Source: a virus (lineage: Duplodnaviria > Caudoviricetes). Taken from it: DNA of 58,956 bases. The notes under the pieces were generated by a model, which saw only the letters and a program-made list of their open reading frames with translations, made no database searches and was not told the DNA's origin. The position numbers and the translations under genes are program-made. Below are positions 14,301 through 24,109 of the stretch, in pieces (position 1 is the stretch's first letter; each line of letters starts with the position of its first letter). The stretch spans positions 1 through 58,956 of IMG/VR virus record IMGVR_UViG_3300034073_000667; one strand, 5' to 3'.

Positions 14301-15341
14301 AAGGCTATCAAGCTCGAAGGACAAACTGTTCGCCAAGAATTCAATAAAACAGTTAAGAAATTAAAAGAAGAAGCCGATGCTCTCCTAAAAGGTGTGACCG
14401 GCCCTGGCGGCGTTGCCGGTCCGACCGAGACCCCCCTTCAGCGTGCTTCTCGCGAGACCACTGAAGACATTGCAGAGCGTCGTGCTCGAGCGCTGCAAAT
14501 TGGTGGCCTAGCAGGCCAGGCTGCATTTGAAGGCCTTGGCGCCCTCGATGTGCGTCAGATCGCCAGCCGTAAAGTCGCGGGAGGAGAAGTCGCTGACTTG
14601 GAAAAGCAAATACGAGGTTTGCAGCAAATGGGAAAAGAGTTGAGCACTCTGGATCAGCTTAAGGAAAAATATTTTGAGGATTGGGATAGCCTCGACCCCG
14701 TATTGCGTCGTCAACTGGAACTTCTTGCTGCGCAGAAAGACGCCCTTGTGAAGCAAACGCAGGCTGCAAAAGACATGAAACAACTGTATTCCGACATTGG
14801 CATGTCGATCAAAGACGGAGTCGTCAGCGCAATTCAAGGAGCGATCGACGGAACGAAGAGTTTGCAGCAGGTAGCGTCCGATCTTCTTAATTCAATTGCG
14901 AACAGACTGCTGGACGTAGCGATAAACTTTGCATTGTTTGGAGTAATGTCTGGTACTGGCACCGGTGGCGGTCTGCTTGGTGGGTTGTTTAAGCCAAACG
15001 CAATGGGCAACGCCTACGCCAAGAACGGCATCGTCCCATTCGCCTATGGCGGCGTGGTCAGTCGACCGACCCTGTTCCCATTCGCCAAGGGCATCGGCCT
15101 CATGGGTGAGGCGGGCCCGGAGGCGATTCTGCCGCTGCGGCGCGGATCCGATGGCAGACTGGGTGTGTCCAGCAGCGGTGGCGGCAGCACGGTCGTGAAT
15201 GTCAGCGTGGATGCCAGCGGAACTGCTGTTGAAGGCGATGGCCCCGGCGCCAATCAGATGGGCCGGATCATCGGTGCGGCCGTGCAGGCTGAGATTGTCA
15301 AAATGCAACGGCCTGGCGGCCTCCTCGCGAACACACGCTGA
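11364..15341 (+). CDS. Tail tape measure protein (block A, 1325 aa)
   Basis: Long helical protein; tape-measure domain ALTQVFSKGKVSAEELNQIAERLPG; C-terminal MGEAGPEAILPL. Confidence 0.9.
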   Translation: MAPRQITDILVRLGIEGLQGLDKVSSAFKDLQKTLDGPTTSAIERVRRSINEYSDASARSEQLIKGQLEALRGLKTQADINSATYRRLNDDINRLETEMRGTTAAIDQQRQAVLASTSASERNADALRRQIQAFGALQQQTRPGSSAFAQLGRDIETARTRLTGLTTEAQQFSRTLTAGFGATPEILARQISVLRRNVTQLRFDSEKYLETLERIQLLSMTQAGRTGRANVIAGFRAYQSSEFARGYAAPSRLPDLPNTTAALEQQLSELSAQLNNVERGSADYTRVSMQMAAVQRELRTELLGTAEAFNRLNIAQAGAERRAAKLETIQEYYRTQGPMAPGVGGFRDPATGAMIARGARTPDRIRVQEQAYARPIGPEPFPEAARRAEEAIDRSLNDVNKIYENARIQRAEIQSKYDNLHIEKLLEGLDLEGRLRQKSFDDELAAFDRQLEARDRRRRGRITPGQAVQTAGAVISGGIFGGPEGFLGGLGGAALGASRAIKGLDMVGGSFAGIAIGAQLGMFRQQIADTANYAAEIQGLQIALRGILGDQKSYNTAIAAAAAATKELNIPQAEATAGLTRLSAAVIGAGGNVNDSVFAFRAIAEAIKATKGNAQQVEGALLALTQVFSKGKVSAEELNQIAERLPGTFTLFAQATGRTGPELQKALEQGQVGLNDLMKFLELASSKYGQTSLKIAKSSEEAGARLNNAFNDMRLNVGKALQPLGAQLQEVFTGFLVSITPAVTAIARALPSLVDGFRKAYQQGGILKGVVDGLVGSLVVFAGLQVFGAFIAGARAAITVTGALIKALKALTAANLLAGAAGFIKSKPGVIAALVAGLGVGIDAAFNQGKIVKGIASGITGAIDQAFSGLGAMMPEIPALDLSGGRTNFRQGAGGGGRDDKAAARERKDLFNELLNQLNAQNEVLAKQGRLNESVAETEWAKAGAALFNAEEILRNEQAQLDLRLKFGEVSKKVYDEQQKAIKLEGQTVRQEFNKTVKKLKEEADALLKGVTGPGGVAGPTETPLQRASRETTEDIAERRARALQIGGLAGQAAFEGLGALDVRQIASRKVAGGEVADLEKQIRGLQQMGKELSTLDQLKEKYFEDWDSLDPVLRRQLELLAAQKDALVKQTQAAKDMKQLYSDIGMSIKDGVVSAIQGAIDGTKSLQQVASDLLNSIANRLLDVAINFALFGVMSGTGTGGGLLGGLFKPNAMGNAYAKNGIVPFAYGGVVSRPTLFPFAKGIGLMGEAGPEAILPLRRGSDGRLGVSSSGGGSTVVNVSVDASGTAVEGDGPGANQMGRIIGAAVQAEIVKMQRPGGLLANTR

Positions 15342-15676
15342 TGGCGACCTTCGCTTATACGCCTAGCTTCAGCGCCGATCTCGAGGAGCAGCCTCGAGTC
15401 AAGTCCGTTCGGTTTGGTGACGGCTACGAGCAGCGGCTTGCCTATGGCCTGAACACGCAACCGAAAAAGTGGTCGCTGACCTTCTTGAACCGCACCGACA
15501 CCGAGCGGGACAACATCTTGGGATTCCTGCGGGCCCGGGGCGGCGTCGAGTCATTTGACTGGACTGACCCGGCCGGCTACGCAGGCAAATGGGTCTGCAA
15601 AGCATGGAACAATAGCCTGGTCAATTGTAATTTCAACAACATTACAGCTACATTCGAGGAAGTGTTCGAGCCCTGA
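15341..15676 (+). CDS. Minor tail protein M (distal tail), lambda gpM-like, copy A
   Basis: FGDGYEQR..GLN..W.LTF and FDWT.P motifs. Confidence 0.9.
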   Translation: MATFAYTPSFSADLEEQPRVKSVRFGDGYEQRLAYGLNTQPKKWSLTFLNRTDTERDNILGFLRARGGVESFDWTDPAGYAGKWVCKAWNNSLVNCNFNNITATFEEVFEP

Positions 15677-16569
15677 TGGCCTACGCAGCTTGGCAAGCCA
15701 GCACCGCATACGTCGTCGGTGACATCGTCCGCGCCACGACCACGCAGGTCAGCGGGCTGGTGTTCCGCTGCACTGTGGCAGGCACCAGCGCCAGCACGCA
15801 ACCGGCATGGCCGACCGACATCGGCAGCACCATCGCAGACGGCGGCGTCACATGGGCGGCGATCAGCAGCGTTTACGAAGAGCTAGCAGTTCTGGGTCCG
15901 AACGCGATCATCGAGCTGTTTGAGCTGCAGCTTGACACCACGCTGCACGGCGCCAGCACCACCTACTACTGGCACAACGGCGTGAACGCAGCCGTCACCG
16001 GCAACATCGTGTTTGACGGCAACACCTACGTCAGGCTCCCGGTCGAGGCGACGGGCTTTGATTACACCAGCTCCGGCAGCCTGCCACGTCCGACGCTGCG
16101 AATCAGCAACCTGTTCAGCGACATGACCACGCTGCTGCTGCTGGTCAATGCGACCACGCCCGGCAACGACCTGGGGGGCGCCACAGTGCGGCGGATCCGC
16201 ACGCTAAAGAAGTTCCTGGATGGCGAGGCCAACGCCGACCCTAATGCCCGCTTCCCAACGGAGATCTGGTACGTCGACCGGAAGTCGAACGAGAACCGCG
16301 ATCTGGTGGAGTTCGAGCTGGCCAGCAAGTTTGACCTAGCCGGCGTCATGCTGCCCCAGCGGCAAATCATCGCCAACGTGTGCCAATGGAAGTATCGTGG
16401 CGCTGAGTGCGGGTACACCGGCAGCAATTACTGGAACGTGAACGATCAGGTCGTTAGCACGCTGGCGGCTGACGTGTGCGGCAAACGGGTGGAGAGCTGC
16501 AAGCTGCGGTTCGGTGCAACGGCTGAGTTGCCGTTCGGAAGTTTCCCGGGGGCTGGACTTACCGCCTAA
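15676..16569 (+). CDS. Minor tail protein L with N-terminal CBM5/12-like domain, copy A
   Basis: IELFEL, PRPTL.ISN, VRRIRT..KFLD, FELAS..D and C-terminal Cys cluster (CQW.YR..EC..CGKR..SC..RFG). Confidence 0.9.
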   Translation: MAYAAWQASTAYVVGDIVRATTTQVSGLVFRCTVAGTSASTQPAWPTDIGSTIADGGVTWAAISSVYEELAVLGPNAIIELFELQLDTTLHGASTTYYWHNGVNAAVTGNIVFDGNTYVRLPVEATGFDYTSSGSLPRPTLRISNLFSDMTTLLLLVNATTPGNDLGGATVRRIRTLKKFLDGEANADPNARFPTEIWYVDRKSNENRDLVEFELASKFDLAGVMLPQRQIIANVCQWKYRGAECGYTGSNYWNVNDQVVSTLAADVCGKRVESCKLRFGATAELPFGSFPGAGLTA

Positions 16570-16575
16570 GGTATC

Positions 16576-17244
16576 ATGATAGGGAGTCCGACTGGTTTTA
16601 TCGTGTCCTTCGGGAACAGGTTCGTCGACATCACTGGCTATCGCTGTGGCTTGCTGGTGGCAGTGAGGCCAACCGCAGGGCGGAGCGGCAGCAGCGTGAT
16701 TTGGGAATGTATTTGCGATTGCGGCAACAAAAAACTCGCGTCTCAGGCACATTTACGCGCAGGAACCCCAAAGTCGTGCGGATGCCTGCCCAACCCGCTT
16801 CCTCCAATTACAATCAAACATGGAATGTTTGGCCATCCTCTTTACAAAACTTGGGAAGGAATGATGGCTAGATGCTACAACGAAAACAATAAAGATTTTT
16901 ATTTATATGGAGGAAGGGGCATTAAGGTTTGCGACCGTTGGCATGATCCCAAGAACTTCGCCGAGGACATGAATCCGCGCCCTGACGGCCATACGCTTGA
17001 TCGCATCGACAATTCGCGTGGTTATAGCCCGGACAACTGCAGATGGGCTACGGCCATGCAGCAGCACGCGAACAAGCGAAGCAATAAGCTGTTCACTATC
17101 AACGGAGAGACACTGCATCAGCGCGAATGGTGTAGGCGCTACAGCATCCCAGTGAGCACATTTACGAATAGGCTGAATGAAGGACTTGAGCCGTTGACTG
17201 CGCTCACGATGCCTTCCCGTCGTCCAAGGCGTGTCGCCAAATGA
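16576..17244 (+). CDS. Free-standing HNH homing endonuclease
   Basis: W.C.CDCG, KSCGC, YGGRGIKVC.RW and TLDRIDN..GY.PDNCRWAT..Q motifs; absent from the second L-K copy. Confidence 0.85.
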   Translation: MIGSPTGFIVSFGNRFVDITGYRCGLLVAVRPTAGRSGSSVIWECICDCGNKKLASQAHLRAGTPKSCGCLPNPLPPITIKHGMFGHPLYKTWEGMMARCYNENNKDFYLYGGRGIKVCDRWHDPKNFAEDMNPRPDGHTLDRIDNSRGYSPDNCRWATAMQQHANKRSNKLFTINGETLHQREWCRRYSIPVSTFTNRLNEGLEPLTALTMPSRRPRRVAK

Positions 17245-17954
17245 AGCTGACCGACACGCTCAAGGCTGACATCCTGGCGCACGCGCAGGCCGAGGATCCC
17301 CGCGAGTGCTGCGGCCTGATCCATGTGGTCAAAGGCCGGCGCCGCTACTACCCGTGCCGCAACATCGCCGCTACACCGGATGAGCATTTCGTCTTGGATC
17401 CGACCGACTACGCAACAGCCGAAGACCTGGGCGAGATCGTGGCCGTGGTCCATAGCCATCCGGTAACGCAGCCAGTGCCATCAGCAGCGGATCAGATCGG
17501 CTGCAATAACAGCGGCCTGCCGTGGGTGATCGTCAATCCAAAAACCGAAGCCTGGGGCGGCTGCGAGCCTGTAGCGTTTGAGCTGCCCTACGTCGGCCGT
17601 GAGTTTGTGTTCGGTGTGGTGGACTGCTATGCCCTAGTGCGGGACTGGTATAAACGCGAGTGGAGCTTGATGCTGGCAGATTTTGAGCGGCGTGATCGGT
17701 TCTGGGAGCGCGGCGAGAACCTGTACCTTGACGGCTATCGCTCGCAGGGGTTCAGGCCGGTGCCATTTGAGGAGTTGCAATACGGCGACGCGATCCTGAT
17801 GCAACTGTTGGCAGACCTGCCCAACCATGCTGCGGTCTACTTGGGCGACCAGCAAATCCTGCATCATGTGCAAGGGCGACTCAGTAGCCGCGACGTGTTT
17901 GGCGGTTACTATGTCAAGAGCACTGCCCTGGTCTTGCGGCATGAAAGTCGTTAA
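17241..17954 (+). CDS. Tail assembly protein K (JAB + NlpC/P60), copy A
   Basis: JAB motifs PRECCG and HSHP......S..D; NlpC/P60 motifs DCYALVRD and NHAAVYLG..ILHH. Confidence 0.92.
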   Translation: MKLTDTLKADILAHAQAEDPRECCGLIHVVKGRRRYYPCRNIAATPDEHFVLDPTDYATAEDLGEIVAVVHSHPVTQPVPSAADQIGCNNSGLPWVIVNPKTEAWGGCEPVAFELPYVGREFVFGVVDCYALVRDWYKREWSLMLADFERRDRFWERGENLYLDGYRSQGFRPVPFEELQYGDAILMQLLADLPNHAAVYLGDQQILHHVQGRLSSRDVFGGYYVKSTALVLRHESR

Positions 17955-18591
17955 GGTCTACGGCGCACTCCGCAAGCGACTCGGCCAGTGCCGGTTCGAG
18001 TTCGAGGTGGACACGCCCGCACAGGCGATCAAAGCGCTGTGTGTCAATTTTCCGGGTTTGGACAAGTGGCTGATCGATTCTGAGCAGACCGGAATGGGCT
18101 TCCGCGTTACCGTCGGCAAGGAGCGCATCACGCCCGAGGATGCCAGCGTGGCCGTGTTGCCATGGTCTGAGCGGGATGTGTTCAGCATTGCGCCTGTGAT
18201 GACCGGCGCTGGGCAGGGATTCGGACAGGTGTTGGCTGGGATTGGTTTAGTGGCGCTGGCGATCATTGCTGGTCCTGCTGCTGGCGGCTTTCTTGGATTG
18301 GGCGCCCAGGCTTTTGCAGGCGCTGGTTTTGTTTTGGGTGGTGCCGCTGCTACCGCAATTGGCGGCATTGGCGCGGCACTGGTGCTCGGCGGCGTCGCTC
18401 AGATGCTGTCCCCGCAGCCGGACATCTCAGCCCTGCAGCGCGGCAAGGAAGCCGCACGTCTGGAATCGTTCAGCTTCAGCGGCATTGTTAATACCAGCCA
18501 GCAGGGGATGCCGGTGCCGATTGTCTATGGCCGGGCTTTTGTCGGTTCGGCTGTCCTGTCTAGTGGCCTTGACGTGGCACAACTGAAATGA
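17941..18591 (+). CDS. Tail assembly protein I (ubiquitin-like N-terminus)
   Basis: ATG 17941 begins MKVVKVYGAL...G; IAPVMTGAG, Gly/Ala hydrophobic segment, SFSG..NT..QG.PVPIVYG. Confidence 0.9.
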   Translation: MKVVKVYGALRKRLGQCRFEFEVDTPAQAIKALCVNFPGLDKWLIDSEQTGMGFRVTVGKERITPEDASVAVLPWSERDVFSIAPVMTGAGQGFGQVLAGIGLVALAIIAGPAAGGFLGLGAQAFAGAGFVLGGAAATAIGGIGAALVLGGVAQMLSPQPDISALQRGKEAARLESFSFSGIVNTSQQGMPVPIVYGRAFVGSAVLSSGLDVAQLK

Positions 18592-21500
18592 CAATGATTC
18601 AAGGTGCCAGCACAGGCGGCGGTTGCTTTCTTGGGCACACGATGGTGCGAACGCCTGACGGCGAACGTCGCATTGATGAGTTGCAGGTAGGCGATCAAGT
18701 CCTGAGTTTTGACGACAAGGGCGAGCTGCATACGGCAACAATTCTGAAGGTGCATGAGCACCCGAACGAGTGCGTCGTGCGTTATCAGCTTTGGGGAGGC
18801 GCCTTGCTGGATGCCACGCCAAACCACTGGGTGTTGAACCAGTTCAATGCTTTCGTTCCAATCGGGAGCCTTGGCAGTGATGACTGTCTGGTGGATGAGA
18901 ATAACCACTTGCGCCCAATTATCAACCGCGAAGACATAGGCACTGGCACTGTCTACAACTTGACCGTTAAAGGGCACCATACGTTTATCGCTGGTGGCAT
19001 CCGCGTTCATAACGCTGGTCTGGGTGTTGGCGCTATCCAGGGTGCTAGCACTGGCGGCGGCGGAAAGGGTGGCGGCGGCACAACTCACATCCCCTCAGAG
19101 GTTGATGACAGCCTGCAGTCGGTTCAATTTGCCAGCGTCCTCGACCTGATCAGCGAAGGCGAGATCGATGGCATTGAGGGCGGTGTGCAGGGCATCTACC
19201 TGGATGGCACGCCAGTCCAGAGCAGCGGCGGAATTGACAATTTCACGGGTTACACCGTCATCACCCGCACTGGCACGCAGGTTCAGAGCTACATCCCTAA
19301 CACCAACGGGATCGAATCAGAGCAGGCTGTGAACGTCGAGATCACGGCTGCTGCATCCGTCACCCGGCAGATCACTGATTCAGACGTTGATCGCGCTCGC
19401 ATTACGGTGCAGGTGCCAGCGCTGCAGATCATCGAGGATGACGGCGACATCGTTGGTCATAGCGTCAGCATCCGCTGCAGTGTGCAATACAACGGCGGCG
19501 GCTACACGACCGTTTTCGAGGACACGATCAGCGGCAAGACAACCAACGCCTATCAGCGCGACTACATCATCAGCCTGACCGGAGCATTTCCGGTTGACAT
19601 CCGCATGGAGCGGATCAGCGCTGATGAATCCAGTGCTCGTCGGCAAAATCGCACATTCTGGTTCAGCTACACCGAGATCATTGACGAGAAGTTCAGGTAT
19701 CCAAACAGCGCACTGGCCTTCCTGCGCTTCGACAGCCGCCAGTTCAAAGGCATCCCAGCCCGCAAGTACCTGGTGCGTGGCATCAAGGTGCAACTGCCAA
19801 GCAATGCCACGGTCGACACGACCACATACCTCGGCCGCGTTACCTACAGCGGCGTTTGGGATGGCACCTTCGGTGCTGCTACCTGGACCAACGACCCGGC
19901 ATGGTGCCTGTGGGATCTGCTGACGAACACCCGATACGGTGCAAGCATCCCGGCCAGCAGCCTGGATCGTTACGACTTCTACGCGATCAGCCAGTACTGC
20001 AACGAGCTGGTCAGCGACGGACGCGGCGGCCTAGAGCCACGGTTCAGTTGCAACATGCTGATCAACAGCAGGGACGAGGTTTACAACGTCATCCAGGAGT
20101 TCGTCGCCCTGTTCCGTGGTATTGCCTACTACGGCGCCGGCGCCATGGTAGTGCTGCAGGACAAGCCATCAGATCCGCAATACCTGTTGACCCCAGCCAA
20201 CGTGGTCGAGGGATTGTTTAACTACAGCGGTTCATCGCAGAAGGCACGGCACACGACTGCCACTGTTGCTTATCAGGATTATGACAACCTGGGCGAAGTG
20301 TCTTATGAGTATGTCGAGGATGCATCAGCCGTTGCCAAGTACGGCATCATCAACAAGGACATCAAGGCAGTCGGCTGCTACTCACAAGGGCAGGCGCACC
20401 GTGCTGGCAAGTGGGCGCTGCTGTCCGAGCAGAATCTAACCGAGACCGTCACTTTCTCAGTGTCGATCGACTCGGGCATCGTGCTGCGGCCTGGCATGGT
20501 GATCGACGTGGCCGATCCGGTCAAGGCTGGCAGCAGGCGCGGCGGCCGCATCGCAGCAGCCACAACCACAACCGTCACGCTGGACGACGCCACCGGCATC
20601 ACGCTCGGCACATCGCCCACGATCAGCGTCTTGCTGCCCACCGGCCTAGTCGAGACCCGCAGCGTCAGCACCCTGACTGCTGGTGTGATCACGGTCACGA
20701 GCGCGTTCAGCGAAGCGCCCAACCCCGAGAGCATCTGGGTCCTGCAGAACACCAGCCTGCAGACGCAGCAGTTCCGTGTCGTCAGTGTGGCTGAGGCCGA
20801 GGACGGCATCTACGGCGTGACTGCGCTGGCCTACAACAGCAGCATCTATGCCTCGATCGAGTCAGACATCAAGCTGCAGACACGAGACATCTCCAACCTG
20901 TCAGCTCTGCCTGCGTCGCCCACCGGCCTGACTGGCACGGAGCACCTGTACACCGACGGCCAGAACGTCCGCACCGCATTTGAGCTGAGCTGGGTACCGC
21001 CGACGCAATTGGTGCAGTCCTACCGGGTGATCTACCGGCTCGGCAACAACAACTGGTCGCAGATCGAGACCAATAGCCCCAGCACCCGCATCGAGGGCTT
21101 AGACGCTGGCACGCTGCAAGTCCGCGTCCAGTCGATCAACAGCCTCGGTGGTGTCAGTAATCCAGCTACAGCTACTTTCAACCTGATCGGCAAGACTGAG
21201 CCGCCTGGCAACGTCCAAAACCTGACGATCGAACCGATCAGCGCCAACAGCGCCCGCCTGCGGTGGGATGCCACGGTTGACCTGGACGTGCGTGTTGCTG
21301 GCCGTGTTCACATTCGCCACACCAACCGGACCAATGGCACCGGCACCTGGAGCAACAGCGTTGACTTAATCCCTGCAGTCGCCGGCTACAGCACCGAAGC
21401 CATCGTGCCGCTTGTCGAAGGCGAGATCCTAGTCAAGTTCGAGGATGACGGTGGCCGTCAGAGTCCGACCGAGGCGAGCGTGATCGTTGACTTCCCGGAT

Positions 21501-22322
21501 GCGCTCGGCAATCTGCTGGTGCAAAGCCGCCGAGAAGATGCAGACTCGCCGCCATTTCAAGGCAACAAAACAGATGTCTTTTACGACGAGGACTATGACG
21601 CGCTAACGCTTGACGGCAGCGACGAGCTAGATGATGTGCTTGATCTTGATTTGATCCCTGTGTTTGATCACATGGGACCAATCACCGGCTCTGGCACATA
21701 TGAGTTCCTTAATACCTTGGATTTGGGTGCGGTTTACGCATTGGACCTGTCACGGTTCTTTGTCACAAGCGGCTTCTATCCGAGTGATTTGATGGATAGC
21801 CGTACCGGCCTGGTCGATAGCTGGTCGGATTGGGATGGTGCCATTGTGGACAAGGTGAACAGCAAGCTGTACCTGAGACGCACTAACGACGATCCATCTG
21901 GGACGCCGACCTGGGCAAGCTGGCAGGAGTTCGTCAATGGCACGTTCTTGGGACGTGGCTTCCAGTTCAAAGCTGAGCTGATCAGCAACGACTCAGCGCA
22001 GAACATCCTGATCGATCAGCTCGGCTACGAAGCCACCTTCCAGCGCAGGACAGAGCAGTCGGTCGGTGCTGTCACCAGCGGCGCTGGCACCTACTCAGTG
22101 GCATTCGACAAAGCCTTCTTCACCGGCACTGCACTGCTTGGCGGCCTGAGCAGTAGCCTGCCCAGCATCGGCATCGTCGCGCAGAACATGGCGACAGGCG
22201 ATTACTTCAACGTGACCAACGTCACGAGCACCGGCTTTGACGTGACGTTCAGAAACAGCGCGGGCACTGCCGTCAGCAGGGATTTCCTATGGACTGCAGT
22301 GGGATTTGGCAAGGGCGCTTAA
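18588..22322 (+). CDS. Tail tip / central tail fibre protein J with N-terminal Hint domain
   Basis: DLISEGEI.G, YP.SA, WTNDPAW.L.D.LTN.RYG, EPRF.CN, GC.SQGQAHR.G.W motifs and FN3-like repeats; Hint domain at residues 13-142. Confidence 0.92.
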   Translation: MTMIQGASTGGGCFLGHTMVRTPDGERRIDELQVGDQVLSFDDKGELHTATILKVHEHPNECVVRYQLWGGALLDATPNHWVLNQFNAFVPIGSLGSDDCLVDENNHLRPIINREDIGTGTVYNLTVKGHHTFIAGGIRVHNAGLGVGAIQGASTGGGGKGGGGTTHIPSEVDDSLQSVQFASVLDLISEGEIDGIEGGVQGIYLDGTPVQSSGGIDNFTGYTVITRTGTQVQSYIPNTNGIESEQAVNVEITAAASVTRQITDSDVDRARITVQVPALQIIEDDGDIVGHSVSIRCSVQYNGGGYTTVFEDTISGKTTNAYQRDYIISLTGAFPVDIRMERISADESSARRQNRTFWFSYTEIIDEKFRYPNSALAFLRFDSRQFKGIPARKYLVRGIKVQLPSNATVDTTTYLGRVTYSGVWDGTFGAATWTNDPAWCLWDLLTNTRYGASIPASSLDRYDFYAISQYCNELVSDGRGGLEPRFSCNMLINSRDEVYNVIQEFVALFRGIAYYGAGAMVVLQDKPSDPQYLLTPANVVEGLFNYSGSSQKARHTTATVAYQDYDNLGEVSYEYVEDASAVAKYGIINKDIKAVGCYSQGQAHRAGKWALLSEQNLTETVTFSVSIDSGIVLRPGMVIDVADPVKAGSRRGGRIAAATTTTVTLDDATGITLGTSPTISVLLPTGLVETRSVSTLTAGVITVTSAFSEAPNPESIWVLQNTSLQTQQFRVVSVAEAEDGIYGVTALAYNSSIYASIESDIKLQTRDISNLSALPASPTGLTGTEHLYTDGQNVRTAFELSWVPPTQLVQSYRVIYRLGNNNWSQIETNSPSTRIEGLDAGTLQVRVQSINSLGGVSNPATATFNLIGKTEPPGNVQNLTIEPISANSARLRWDATVDLDVRVAGRVHIRHTNRTNGTGTWSNSVDLIPAVAGYSTEAIVPLVEGEILVKFEDDGGRQSPTEASVIVDFPDALGNLLVQSRREDADSPPFQGNKTDVFYDEDYDALTLDGSDELDDVLDLDLIPVFDHMGPITGSGTYEFLNTLDLGAVYALDLSRFFVTSGFYPSDLMDSRTGLVDSWSDWDGAIVDKVNSKLYLRRTNDDPSGTPTWASWQEFVNGTFLGRGFQFKAELISNDSAQNILIDQLGYEATFQRRTEQSVGAVTSGAGTYSVAFDKAFFTGTALLGGLSSSLPSIGIVAQNMATGDYFNVTNVTSTGFDVTFRNSAGTAVSRDFLWTAVGFGKGA
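18624..19013 (+). other. Hint (intein-like/BIL-type) domain, 130 aa
   Basis: Block A CFLGHTMV, block B ATPNH, block F VYNLTV, block G HTFIAGGIRVHN; +1 residue is Ala. Confidence 0.88.
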
Positions 22323-22345: not shown

Positions 22346-24109
22346 ATGGCTCAACACGATTACGTCATCGCTAACGGCACTGGTGCAGCCGTCCGATCTG
22401 ACCTGAACAATGCGCTGGCGGCGATCGTCAGCCAGAACAGCGGCGCCACTGCACCGACCACGACCTACGCCTACATGCCCTGGGCGGATACCGGCAGCAG
22501 CCCGCCGGTGTTCAAGATCCGAAACGCCGCCAACAACGGCTGGATCACGCTTTACCAGCTCGACGGCGAGTGGAGCACTATTGCCCTGGAGAACGGAACG
22601 GCTGGGGCGCCGTCCATTTACTTCAAAGACAGCGGCACCGATACCGGCATCTACAGCCCTGGCACTGACCAGGTTGCCATCAGCACGGGCGGCACCAGCA
22701 GGCTGACCATTGACGCCAGCGGCAACGTCAACATCGACAGCAATACGCTGTACGTTGATGCTTCGAATAATCGAGTAGGTCTGGGGACTAGCAGCGTTGG
22801 CTCGCTATTGCACTTGAAGCAAGACATTGCCGAGTCTGCAACACTCAACGCAGCCGGAAGTCATCTTCAAATCAACTCAGGTTCAGGATCTGGTACAAAC
22901 TATAGATCCACCATATTCTTTGCACCGCTAAATAGTTCCGGCAACGGAAGCCCTGCCGCCATATCTGCAATTGCTAGCGGCAACACCAATTCATCACTTG
23001 GATTCTATACAAATCCAGCCAATGACTACAGCGGCATTCCTGATCTAAGGATGCTTATTGACTCCTCGGGCAACGTAGGGATTGGCACTACGAGTCCTAG
23101 CGCAACACTTCACGTTGTTGGCGATGCGCTCTTTACTAATGCCAGCCCCATCATCAACTTGCCAGGCAGTGCAGTGAATCAAACTGCCAAGCTTAGAAAC
23201 GCCAACGGCGGTAGTAGTGTTTTGCAGCTTGAGTCTGCGTCACTAGTTTTTGCTAATGATTCTTCTATAGAACGCGCCCGCATCGACAGCTCGGGACGCC
23301 TGTTAGTTGGCACGTCTTCTGACTCTCAAACAAGCACTCTTGTCTTGAAAGGTAACAGTGCTGGAGTTGCCAACGCTGGAACATTGCGGATTGAAAGAGG
23401 TCAAGGTGCCGGAAACATTACGTCCAGCAATATAGAACTAGGCACCATTGCGCTCGGTGGTTCTGCTATTCCTAGCGCACTTGTCCAAGCATATAGCGAT
23501 GGAAATTGGACCGCTGGGACATCTTATCCAACTCGTCTAGTGTTCTCCGTTACTGCTGATGGTTCGGCATCACCAACTGAAGCCATGCGTATCAATAACG
23601 CAGGCGAGCTTCTGGTTGGCTACACATCAGACAACGGTGCCTACAAGCTCCAAGTCAACAGTCAGATCTTTGCCACCAGTGCCACCATCGCCACTTCTGA
23701 TGGTCGGTATAAAGAAAACGTTGCTACACTCGGCGGATGCTTGGATCTCGTCAAGGCCCTGCGTCCGGTTAGCTTCACCTGGAAACCCCAAGAGGACATC
23801 ACTCGTATTGATGACGAAGGCAATGAAGTGTTGGTGCGTGAGGGGCATAACTTTCCCGAAGGCATTCAAGTTGGCTTTATCGCTCAAGAAGTGCAAGAGG
23901 TTCTGGCAGATAAACCTTGGATGAGTAGTGTCATCAAGGAAAACGTCCGCCCTGTTGTCAAGGACAACGAGGGCAATGAGTTGGCGCCAGAGGAACAGTT
24001 CTACGGCATTGCCGAGGGGAATCTGATCGCTGTGCTGACCAACGCTTTACAGGAAGCTGTTACCGAGATCGAAAGTCTCAAGGCTCGTTTAGACGCGGCA
24101 AACCTCTGA
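22346..24109 (+). CDS. Tail fibre protein with C-terminal intramolecular chaperone (peptidase S74-like)
   Basis: RIDSSGNVGIGT-type repeats; SD.RYKEN..LRPV.F.W..GFIAQEV..LTNALQE chaperone signature. Confidence 0.88.
   Translation: MAQHDYVIANGTGAAVRSDLNNALAAIVSQNSGATAPTTTYAYMPWADTGSSPPVFKIRNAANNGWITLYQLDGEWSTIALENGTAGAPSIYFKDSGTDTGIYSPGTDQVAISTGGTSRLTIDASGNVNIDSNTLYVDASNNRVGLGTSSVGSLLHLKQDIAESATLNAAGSHLQINSGSGSGTNYRSTIFFAPLNSSGNGSPAAISAIASGNTNSSLGFYTNPANDYSGIPDLRMLIDSSGNVGIGTTSPSATLHVVGDALFTNASPIINLPGSAVNQTAKLRNANGGSSVLQLESASLVFANDSSIERARIDSSGRLLVGTSSDSQTSTLVLKGNSAGVANAGTLRIERGQGAGNITSSNIELGTIALGGSAIPSALVQAYSDGNWTAGTSYPTRLVFSVTADGSASPTEAMRINNAGELLVGYTSDNGAYKLQVNSQIFATSATIATSDGRYKENVATLGGCLDLVKALRPVSFTWKPQEDITRIDDEGNEVLVREGHNFPEGIQVGFIAQEVQEVLADKPWMSSVIKENVRPVVKDNEGNELAPEEQFYGIAEGNLIAVLTNALQEAVTEIESLKARLDAANL

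Follow-up and report, generated by a model that had tools for sequence, protein, structure and literature searches.

A BIL-type Hint domain in the glycine-rich start of phage tail-tip protein J: a probable optional cassette

Results

The locus considered here is the N-terminus of the tail-tip and host-specificity protein J encoded in IMG/VR virus record IMGVR_UViG_3300034073_000667 (Duplodnaviria; Caudoviricetes), a record of 58,956 bases from an uncultured phage with a completeness rating of 100%, which is referred to over its whole length as the window. A tail module of the lambda type is found in the window with its open reading frames (ORFs) in the order M-L-K-I-J, as read from the ORF list and Pfam, and J is of the lambda type both by this order and by its FNIII-A_GpJ and Phage-tail_3 domains. 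An initial annotation, made from the letters of the sequence, had proposed that J begins MTM-IQGASTGGG-Hint-AGLGVGA-IQGASTGGG-GKGGGG, and the translation and the coordinates agree with this layout (Table 1). The ATG of J and the stop codon of gene I overlap in ATGA.

The Hint domain extends from Cys13 to Asn142 and is flanked by two copies of the peptide IQGASTGGG. Direct comparison of the two 27-nt copies revealed 5 differences, 5/5 of them synonymous, as had been annotated, and judged from these sequences both copies are kept at the protein level while their DNA differs. J residues 7-146 were matched by the Pfam families Hint, PT-HINT, Hint_2 and Intein_splicing; the score of Hint (PF01079, 31.9 bits) exceeds its cut-off of 29.7 and that of PT-HINT (PF07591, 26.5 bits) lies just under its cut-off of 27.7. 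No endonuclease family was detected in J by Pfam. In the AlphaFold model the predicted local distance difference test score is >93 for residues 11-142 and <50 for residues 1-9 and 144-166, so that both flanks of the Hint are predicted to be disordered. Between codons 109 and 199 of J there is no in-frame ATG, GTG or TTG. Therefore every J molecule is made with the Hint, and translation of J from an internal start downstream of the domain, which would have refuted the initial annotation, is ruled out.

The conservation of this arrangement was assessed by a word-indexed protein search with J residues 1-250, which returned 1195 proteins at E<=0.001, the best 120 of which were inspected. All of these are J-sized and start as the window J does. 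With the window's own fragment included, the Hint is exactly 130 aa long and followed by Ala at +1 in 119/121 sequences, and the pattern [ILV]xG[AS]G(n), C..130 aa..HN, AGLG..[ILV]xG[AS]G(n)KGGGG recurs in the same proportion (119/121), the two exceptions being one protein with a double Hint and one that is cut N-terminally. Comparison of homologues with and without the Hint had been called for at the outset, and it leaves no single-unit sequence with any residue other than Ala at +1 (119/119). In IMG/VR, 296 stretches encode a relative of J residues 1-250, and VHN-AGL was present in 80/80 of those fetched. A homologous Hint is also borne in the same place by distant J lineages, namely 10/150 of the nearest J cluster representatives (50% identity clusters); these ten have Ala or Gly at +1 and share only 41-65% identity with the window in the N-terminal fragment that was aligned. 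An alignment of 29 sequences, 10 of them from the distant J clusters, showed G12, C13, T77, N79, H80, H141 and N142 to be invariant, and K160, which lies downstream of the Hint, likewise. The earlier description of the domain as free of an endonuclease, intact in its catalytic blocks and followed by Ala is borne out, and the catalytic residues and a non-nucleophilic +1 residue are conserved in the family. The ratio of nonsynonymous to synonymous polymorphism (pN/pS) was 0.04-0.24 for the Hint as against 0.07-0.44 for the next 130 J codons in 61 unique loci; by this measure of the sequences the Hint is under strong purifying selection.

The double-Hint protein P0011, a metagenomic J of 1447 aa from outside the window, holds two tandem Hint units that are identical at 97/130 positions. 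Cys1, TPNH, His-Asn and Ala at +1 are found in each unit, so that both are intact, and the same IHGA motif recurs in all three Gly-rich linkers.

The duplicated peptide had been taken as a peculiarity of the Hint, and this is not so. When J residues 143-642, a part that excludes the Hint, served as the query, 6789 matches were obtained, and among the best 150, which were inspected, nearly all Hint-less J proteins read M-x(2-10)-[ILV]-x-G-[AS]-Gly run-K-GGGG-x-P-x-E-x-x-D-S-L-x-S, with the motif present once. On this sequence comparison IQGASTGGG-GKGGGG is the canonical start of J, to which occupied alleles add a copy of the first half ahead of the Hint. Since Hint-less J proteins carry the motif once, a cut at Asn142 would leave a complete canonical J start. 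In three lineages the insertion is plain and involves no duplication (...GSGGGG, Hint, GGGGKGG...); others display the duplication, with different linkers. Between the motif copies of 60 unique locus pairs, 2-6 of 6 residues are shared and 0-5 synonymous codon differences are found. Recent gene conversion between the copies is not supported by these data, as the copies are alike in protein but differ in synonymous codons.

The Hint is an optional constituent of J. Clusters at >=90% identity hold Hint-bearing J proteins of 1245-1251 aa together with Hint-less ones of 1108-1110 aa, and the 80 IMG/VR loci closest to a Hint-less J comprise 39 that are complete and occupied, 33 that are complete and empty and 8 that are cut. 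The suggestion that the domain carries out a required maturation step of the tail tip is accordingly not supported, since alleles of J that are at least 90% identical occur with and without it. The boundaries of the insertion were compared in one pair of loci, L083 (empty) and L088 (occupied), whose DNA is 90.7% and 89.6% identical on either side of an indel of ~416 nt; the pairs L122/L125, L122/L123, L152/L153 and L114/L123 were too gappy upstream for this comparison.

The distribution of occupied and empty alleles was mapped onto a tree computed with FastTree from 199 J cores, of which 68 are occupied. To arrive at these cores, 25/311 proteins were dropped (short, no anchor motif, cut N-terminus or long Hint-less N-terminus, P0215 and P0236 among them), and the remaining 286 were reduced by removing same-state cores >97% identical. 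The Hint state changes 15 times on this tree as against 48-63 times in 300 label shuffles; the tree is approximate and the count does not separate gains from losses. As far as the sequences tell, the Hint runs in lineages, yet its gain or loss has occurred repeatedly. The core of the window J is 98.5% identical to the core of locus L003, whereas the Hint is 86.9% identical, which is the highest identity to any Hint seen. Locus L002 was disregarded in this comparison, since its core identity of 0.21 stems from an offset in the gap-free alignment. In bins of 90 nt the DNA identity between the window and L003 was 0.74-0.85 where the bins cover the Hint, as against 0.86-0.97 for the J body. Synonymous divergence (dS) was 0.9-1.2 in the Hint as compared to 0.4-0.7 in the core. 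The lower identity and higher dS of the Hint relative to the J body imply that the cassette region has a history of its own.

The window stretch is present in contigs of 4 metagenome runs belonging to one study, at a depth of up to 394.8. No DNA-level excision or bypass joints were found in the contigs of these 4 runs, contigs being silent on rare variants. Occupied and empty alleles may coexist in one subsurface sample or community, although the indication is weak. A minor contig in one run, possibly the run from which the record stems (depth 46.5 against 394.8), has 9 differences in 99 nt over window positions 18493-18591, departs from the window just past the J start and continues, by hand translation, as MSDELLLVQGA, the type of leader that Hint-less alleles have.

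A dependence of the cassette on 'collaborative homing' with a putative free-standing HNH gene, the 222-aa ORF located between L and K, was also considered. Such a gene lies upstream of K in 3/60 Hint-bearing and 2/16 Hint-less loci, the 76 loci being those that cover the start of K (59 more did not cover it and 14 had no K match). Collaborative homing was rejected for lack of association with the Hint in these loci.

The closest relatives of the J Hint were sought by sequence and by fold. With a profile of the J Hint alignment run against PDB sequences, the BIL domain of C. thermocellum (2lwy_A) came first at E 5e-16, followed by the gp41-1 and RecA mini-inteins. In Foldseek the top match was BIL2 of Tetrahymena thermophila BUBL1 (6Y75, 6TMM; E 1.5e-11, TM 0.72-0.80), followed by mini-inteins and 2LWY, with a probability of 1.00 for BIL2, inteins and 2lwy and with Hedgehog domains ranking lower. 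Both results bear out the earlier likening of the domain to BIL and pretoxin Hint domains. A Protein Atlas search for relatives of the Hint outside J reached a best score of 0.80, below a meaningful level, and the small viral PT-HINT proteins that it returned are leads only.

With the type-A BIL 2LWY the J Hint shares the Hint fold, Cys1, TxxH, the C-terminal His-Asn and a length of about 130-140 aa, as well as the lack of both a +1 nucleophile and an endonuclease. The review PMC4031507 describes the same C-terminal His-Asn and missing +1 nucleophile for type-A BILs, with cleavage as the dominant reaction and splicing possible by aminolysis, in which the thioester is attacked by the amino group that cleavage has exposed. 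The fold, the Cys nucleophile with TxxH, the His-Asn end and a non-nucleophilic +1 residue were all found in the J Hint. The location is different: BILs are placed by the review PMC7765530 in hypervariable regions of non-conserved bacterial proteins, whereas the J Hint always occupies the same place, within the Gly run of a conserved phage J N-terminal motif, and has occupied and empty alleles in the manner of an intein. A further difference is that its PT-HINT score falls slightly below the Pfam cut-off (26.5 vs 27.7 bits). The J Hint thus has all sequence features of the type-A BIL class, and self-cleavage itself is predicted.

The mini-inteins (gp41-1, Mtu RecA, Ssp/Npu DnaB) share with the J Hint the fold and the catalytic blocks, the conserved site in an essential protein, and presence/absence polymorphism among close alleles. 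They differ in that the +1 residue of the J Hint is never Cys, Ser or Thr (0/119, and 0/10 in the distant lineages), in that the N-extein of J is merely a leader of 12-19 residues, and in that J has a second copy of the host motif behind the insert. Formation of the canonical branched intermediate is precluded by such a +1 residue. Of the traits of a class 1 intein, J shows alleles with and without the insert at a single conserved site, but neither the +1 nucleophile nor an endonuclease in or linked to the insert.

BIL2 of BUBL1 resembles the J Hint in following a Gly-ending peptide and in having no +1 nucleophile, but the identity between the two is only 20-21%. BIL2 is furthermore flanked by folded ubiquitin-like domains, whereas the N-extein of J is a short unfolded leader, and conjugation by the J Hint could be proposed by analogy only. 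The Hog domain of Hedgehog has the Hint fold and an N-terminal Cys thioester in common with the J Hint (6tyy and 1at0 being weaker matches). The J Hint is not of this type, as it has no sterol-recognition region and ends in His-Asn followed by a Gly-rich linker.

The neighbours of J in the tail module are listed in Table 1. Gene K, annotated initially as a JAB/NlpC protein, was confirmed as such by Pfam. Gene I had no Pfam match at E<=0.01, and the ubiquitin-like fold of protein I is an assignment taken from Iyer et al. 2006 (PMC1779556), where the JAB domain of K is predicted to cut I at the junction glycine. This junction, which the initial annotation placed at the end of the ubiquitin-like domain, had been noted in its window form PVMTGAG as loosely similar to IQGAS of J. 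At family level the likeness proved stronger, the junction reading P-[VI]-[IVL]-x-G-A-G in all forms recovered, with the five-residue strings of the I junction and the J start literally identical (IAGAG) in 26/128 loci. It is nevertheless still the likeness of a five-residue Gly-rich motif, short and partly imposed by the search pattern, and should be read as a lead. On the sequences, the JAB peptidase of K may have a second substrate in the conserved start of J.

In two metagenomic proteins, P0215 and P0236, I is fused to J, and I-J fusions are also mentioned by Iyer et al. (PMC1779556). A Hint inserted after the ubiquitin-like domain of I was looked for in 30 longer relatives of I and found in P0313 only, where the reading frame of I runs on into the leader and Hint of J before a frameshifted tail; this case is probably an assembly error and a Hint in that position was discounted. 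Some of P0215, P0236 and P0313 may be assembly errors in runs of Gly codons.

The N-terminus of L (window 15676-15800), ahead of Phage_tail_L, gave a weak match to the carbohydrate-binding family CBM_5_12 (E 0.0013, below cut-off). The Peptidase_S74 domain of the tail fibre constitutes a second, unrelated self-cleaving module within the same tail. The host could not be named, the single genome match being a 7-kb contig binned in a cyanobacterial metagenome-assembled genome, which is too weak for the purpose.

Among 50,697 GenBank phage records J had 189 matches; none of the 40 listed covers the Hint and 0/189 cover 80% of the query. Annotated J proteins of Burkholderia and Ralstonia phages align to the window J only from residue 169-170 onward. 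The Hint alone gave 17 matches in the same records, at <35% identity and never in J, the genes concerned being terminase or helicase genes, a P-loop NTPase and hypothetical proteins. In the literature searched no description of a Hint or BIL domain in tail protein J was found, in line with the initial annotation, and where inteins are mentioned in PMC3556154, PMC8790156 and PMC6293099 these concern only terminase, helicase and dCTP deaminase.

Table 1. Positions of the J segments and of the surrounding tail genes in the window.
Feature	Position	Strand	Remarks
J, whole gene	18588-22322	+	tail-tip / host-specificity protein
J leader (N-extein) MTMIQGASTGGG	18588..18623	+	holds motif copy 1 IQGASTGGG (18597-18623); Gly12 is the -1 residue
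Mini Hint, C13 to N142	18624..19013	+	130 aa; Cys1, T77-P-N-H80 and H141-N142 all present
Linker AGLGVGA	19014..19034	+	Ala143 is the +1 residue
Motif copy 2 IQGASTGGG (19035-19061), then GKGGGG (19062-19079)	19035..19079	+	canonical J start
J body	19080..22322	+	FNIII-A_GpJ, Phage-tail_3, fn3 (Pfam)
M	15341-15676		by ORF order
L	15676-16569		Phage_tail_L domain (Pfam)
222-aa ORF between L and K	16576-17244		no Pfam match at E<=0.01
K	17241-17954	+	Prok-JAB and NlpC/P60 domains (Pfam)
I, tail assembly protein I family	17941-18591	+	PVMTGAG at 18193-18213
Tail fibre	22346-24109		Peptidase_S74 intramolecular chaperone domain at end (Pfam)

Discussion

The anatomy of the J N-terminus, its conservation and purifying selection, the presence/absence polymorphism and the closest relatives of the Hint are matters of observation. 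The interpretation that we regard as probable is that the J N-terminus is an optional, recombination-borne cassette of the BIL type which removes itself by Asn cyclisation and leaves a normal J N-terminus. The cassette would comprise the first 149 codons of J, i.e. the leader, the 130-aa BIL-type mini Hint and the short linker, located within the Gly run of the J motif. After translation the Hint would fold autonomously between two disordered Gly-rich arms, Cys13 would form a thioester with Gly12, and cyclisation of Asn142 would break the Asn142-Ala143 bond. The released J would begin AGLGVGA-IQGASTGGGGKGGGG and retain the complete canonical start, and hydrolysis of the thioester would discard the 12-residue leader. 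In a fraction of the molecules the new amino group of Ala143 may instead attack the thioester and re-attach the leader, as in type-A BIL splicing. The cassette would evolve like an endonuclease-less intein, dispensable for J and often gained or lost through recombination among related phages, with catalysis staying intact because every J from an occupied allele passes through the Hint. The occurrence of cleavage, the products formed and the role of passenger rather than benefactor are what we infer. The occupied allele itself works, as the record is 100% complete, reaches a depth of 394.8 and offers no bypassing start codon.

Several points weigh against this interpretation. Cys13 and Gly12 are invariant, though they would be free to drift if C-terminal cleavage alone mattered, and this sequence conservation hints that the thioester matters, via splicing, transfer or the coupling of steps. 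A Hint on a long Gly linker might be tolerated, so that a steric need for its removal cannot be assumed and, should the Hint be tolerated, would not account for the retention of catalysis. The canonical motif is also preserved in the leader, a segment that would be discarded on this reading. Finally, the double-Hint J together with the wide spread of the cassette could reflect an advantage.

Such an advantage is the essence of an alternative in which the Hint is a beneficial pro-domain that delays or controls the folding, trimerisation or tip entry of J, or has a function of its own once released as a 14-kDa Hint, and is kept by selection at the level of the phage. The strong purifying selection, the widespread cassette (296 IMG/VR stretches and 10/150 of the nearest J cluster representatives), the J with two intact tandem units and the abundance of the occupied allele in the sample all speak in its favour. 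We nonetheless think it unlikely, as about half of the nearest relatives have an otherwise similar J without the cassette, no neighbouring gene was seen to accompany the Hint (the putative HNH gene in 3/60 vs 2/16 loci), and selection on catalysis is to be expected in any self-excising insert. That the Hint instead remains on the virion J as an outer domain, its catalytic residues being kept for structural reasons, is consistent with a long disordered linker from which the domain could dangle; the catalytic residues at the two junctions do not vary, however, between lineages with only 41-49% identity, which would be unusual for a purely structural role, and we hold this to be very improbable. 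The closeness of mini-inteins (gp41-1, RecA, DnaB) in sequence and fold may also suggest an ordinary intein that decays after loss of its +1 nucleophile, as foreseen in the initial annotation should Ser, Thr or Cys turn up at +1 among homologues. These residues never do, Ala being found in 119/119 and Ala or Gly in 10/10 distant lineages, the length is fixed at 130 aa and pN/pS is as low as 0.04-0.24; the likelihood of a decaying intein is negligible and the explanation was excluded on these three grounds.

A transfer of the thioester as in BUBL deserves separate consideration, since the best fold match of the J Hint is BIL2, which is reported in PMC8616854 to join a lysine by an isopeptide bond to the C-terminus of the preceding ubiquitin-like domain. 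The leader Gly thioester would here be passed to an amine other than that of Ala143, either Lys160 or the lysine of another tail protein, and as part of the same reading the isopeptide mark would be removable by the JAB peptidase of K. Cys13, Gly12 and K160 are invariant, [ILV]xG[AS]G of J matches the I junction [IVL]xGAG in form and is identical to it (IAGAG) in 26/128 loci, and it is at this glycine that the JAB of K is predicted to cut I (Iyer et al., PMC1779556). The group moved would however be a fold-less peptide of only 12-19 residues, and K160 and the motif are equally conserved in Hint-less J proteins and so independent of the Hint, Hint-less alleles existing even for near-identical J. 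In addition, the lysine is placed at anywhere from +5 to about +25 relative to the cut site, depending on the lineage, and the likeness of the I and J motifs amounts to five Gly-rich residues, partly imposed by the search pattern. Both the transfer and the removable mark are consequently rated as rather improbable. Carried to its full extent, the analogy would make the leader and Hint a minimal ubiquitin-like conjugation device that operates without E1/E2, attaches the peptide to Lys160 or to a partner in the tip, and has its mark read or removed by the JAB of K. We give this distinctly little credence; if it were true, the unexplained ubiquitin-like pair I/K of lambda-type tails would be tied to a covalent step in tip assembly.

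Bacterial intein-like (BIL) domains have been known for two decades, and their role in their hosts is unclear. The domain described here is type-A BIL-like and lies in a new, fixed setting in a phage structural protein, with the allele dynamics of an intein. The J Hints form a large natural family confined to a single conserved position in a phage protein that is well understood, and the many matched occupied and empty alleles make the cost or benefit of a BIL directly measurable. Its chemistry, be it cleavage, nucleophile-free splicing or transfer, should be readable by mass spectrometry on a short and simple substrate. For annotation, J proteins that are ~137 residues longer than their relatives are not to be read as fusions or errors. 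The findings also draw attention to a strongly conserved, unexplained Gly-rich motif at the J N-terminus that resembles one in protein I. With respect to the evolution of these phages, the J cassette represents an intein-like element without an endonuclease that is often gained and lost among related phages, apparently by ordinary recombination.

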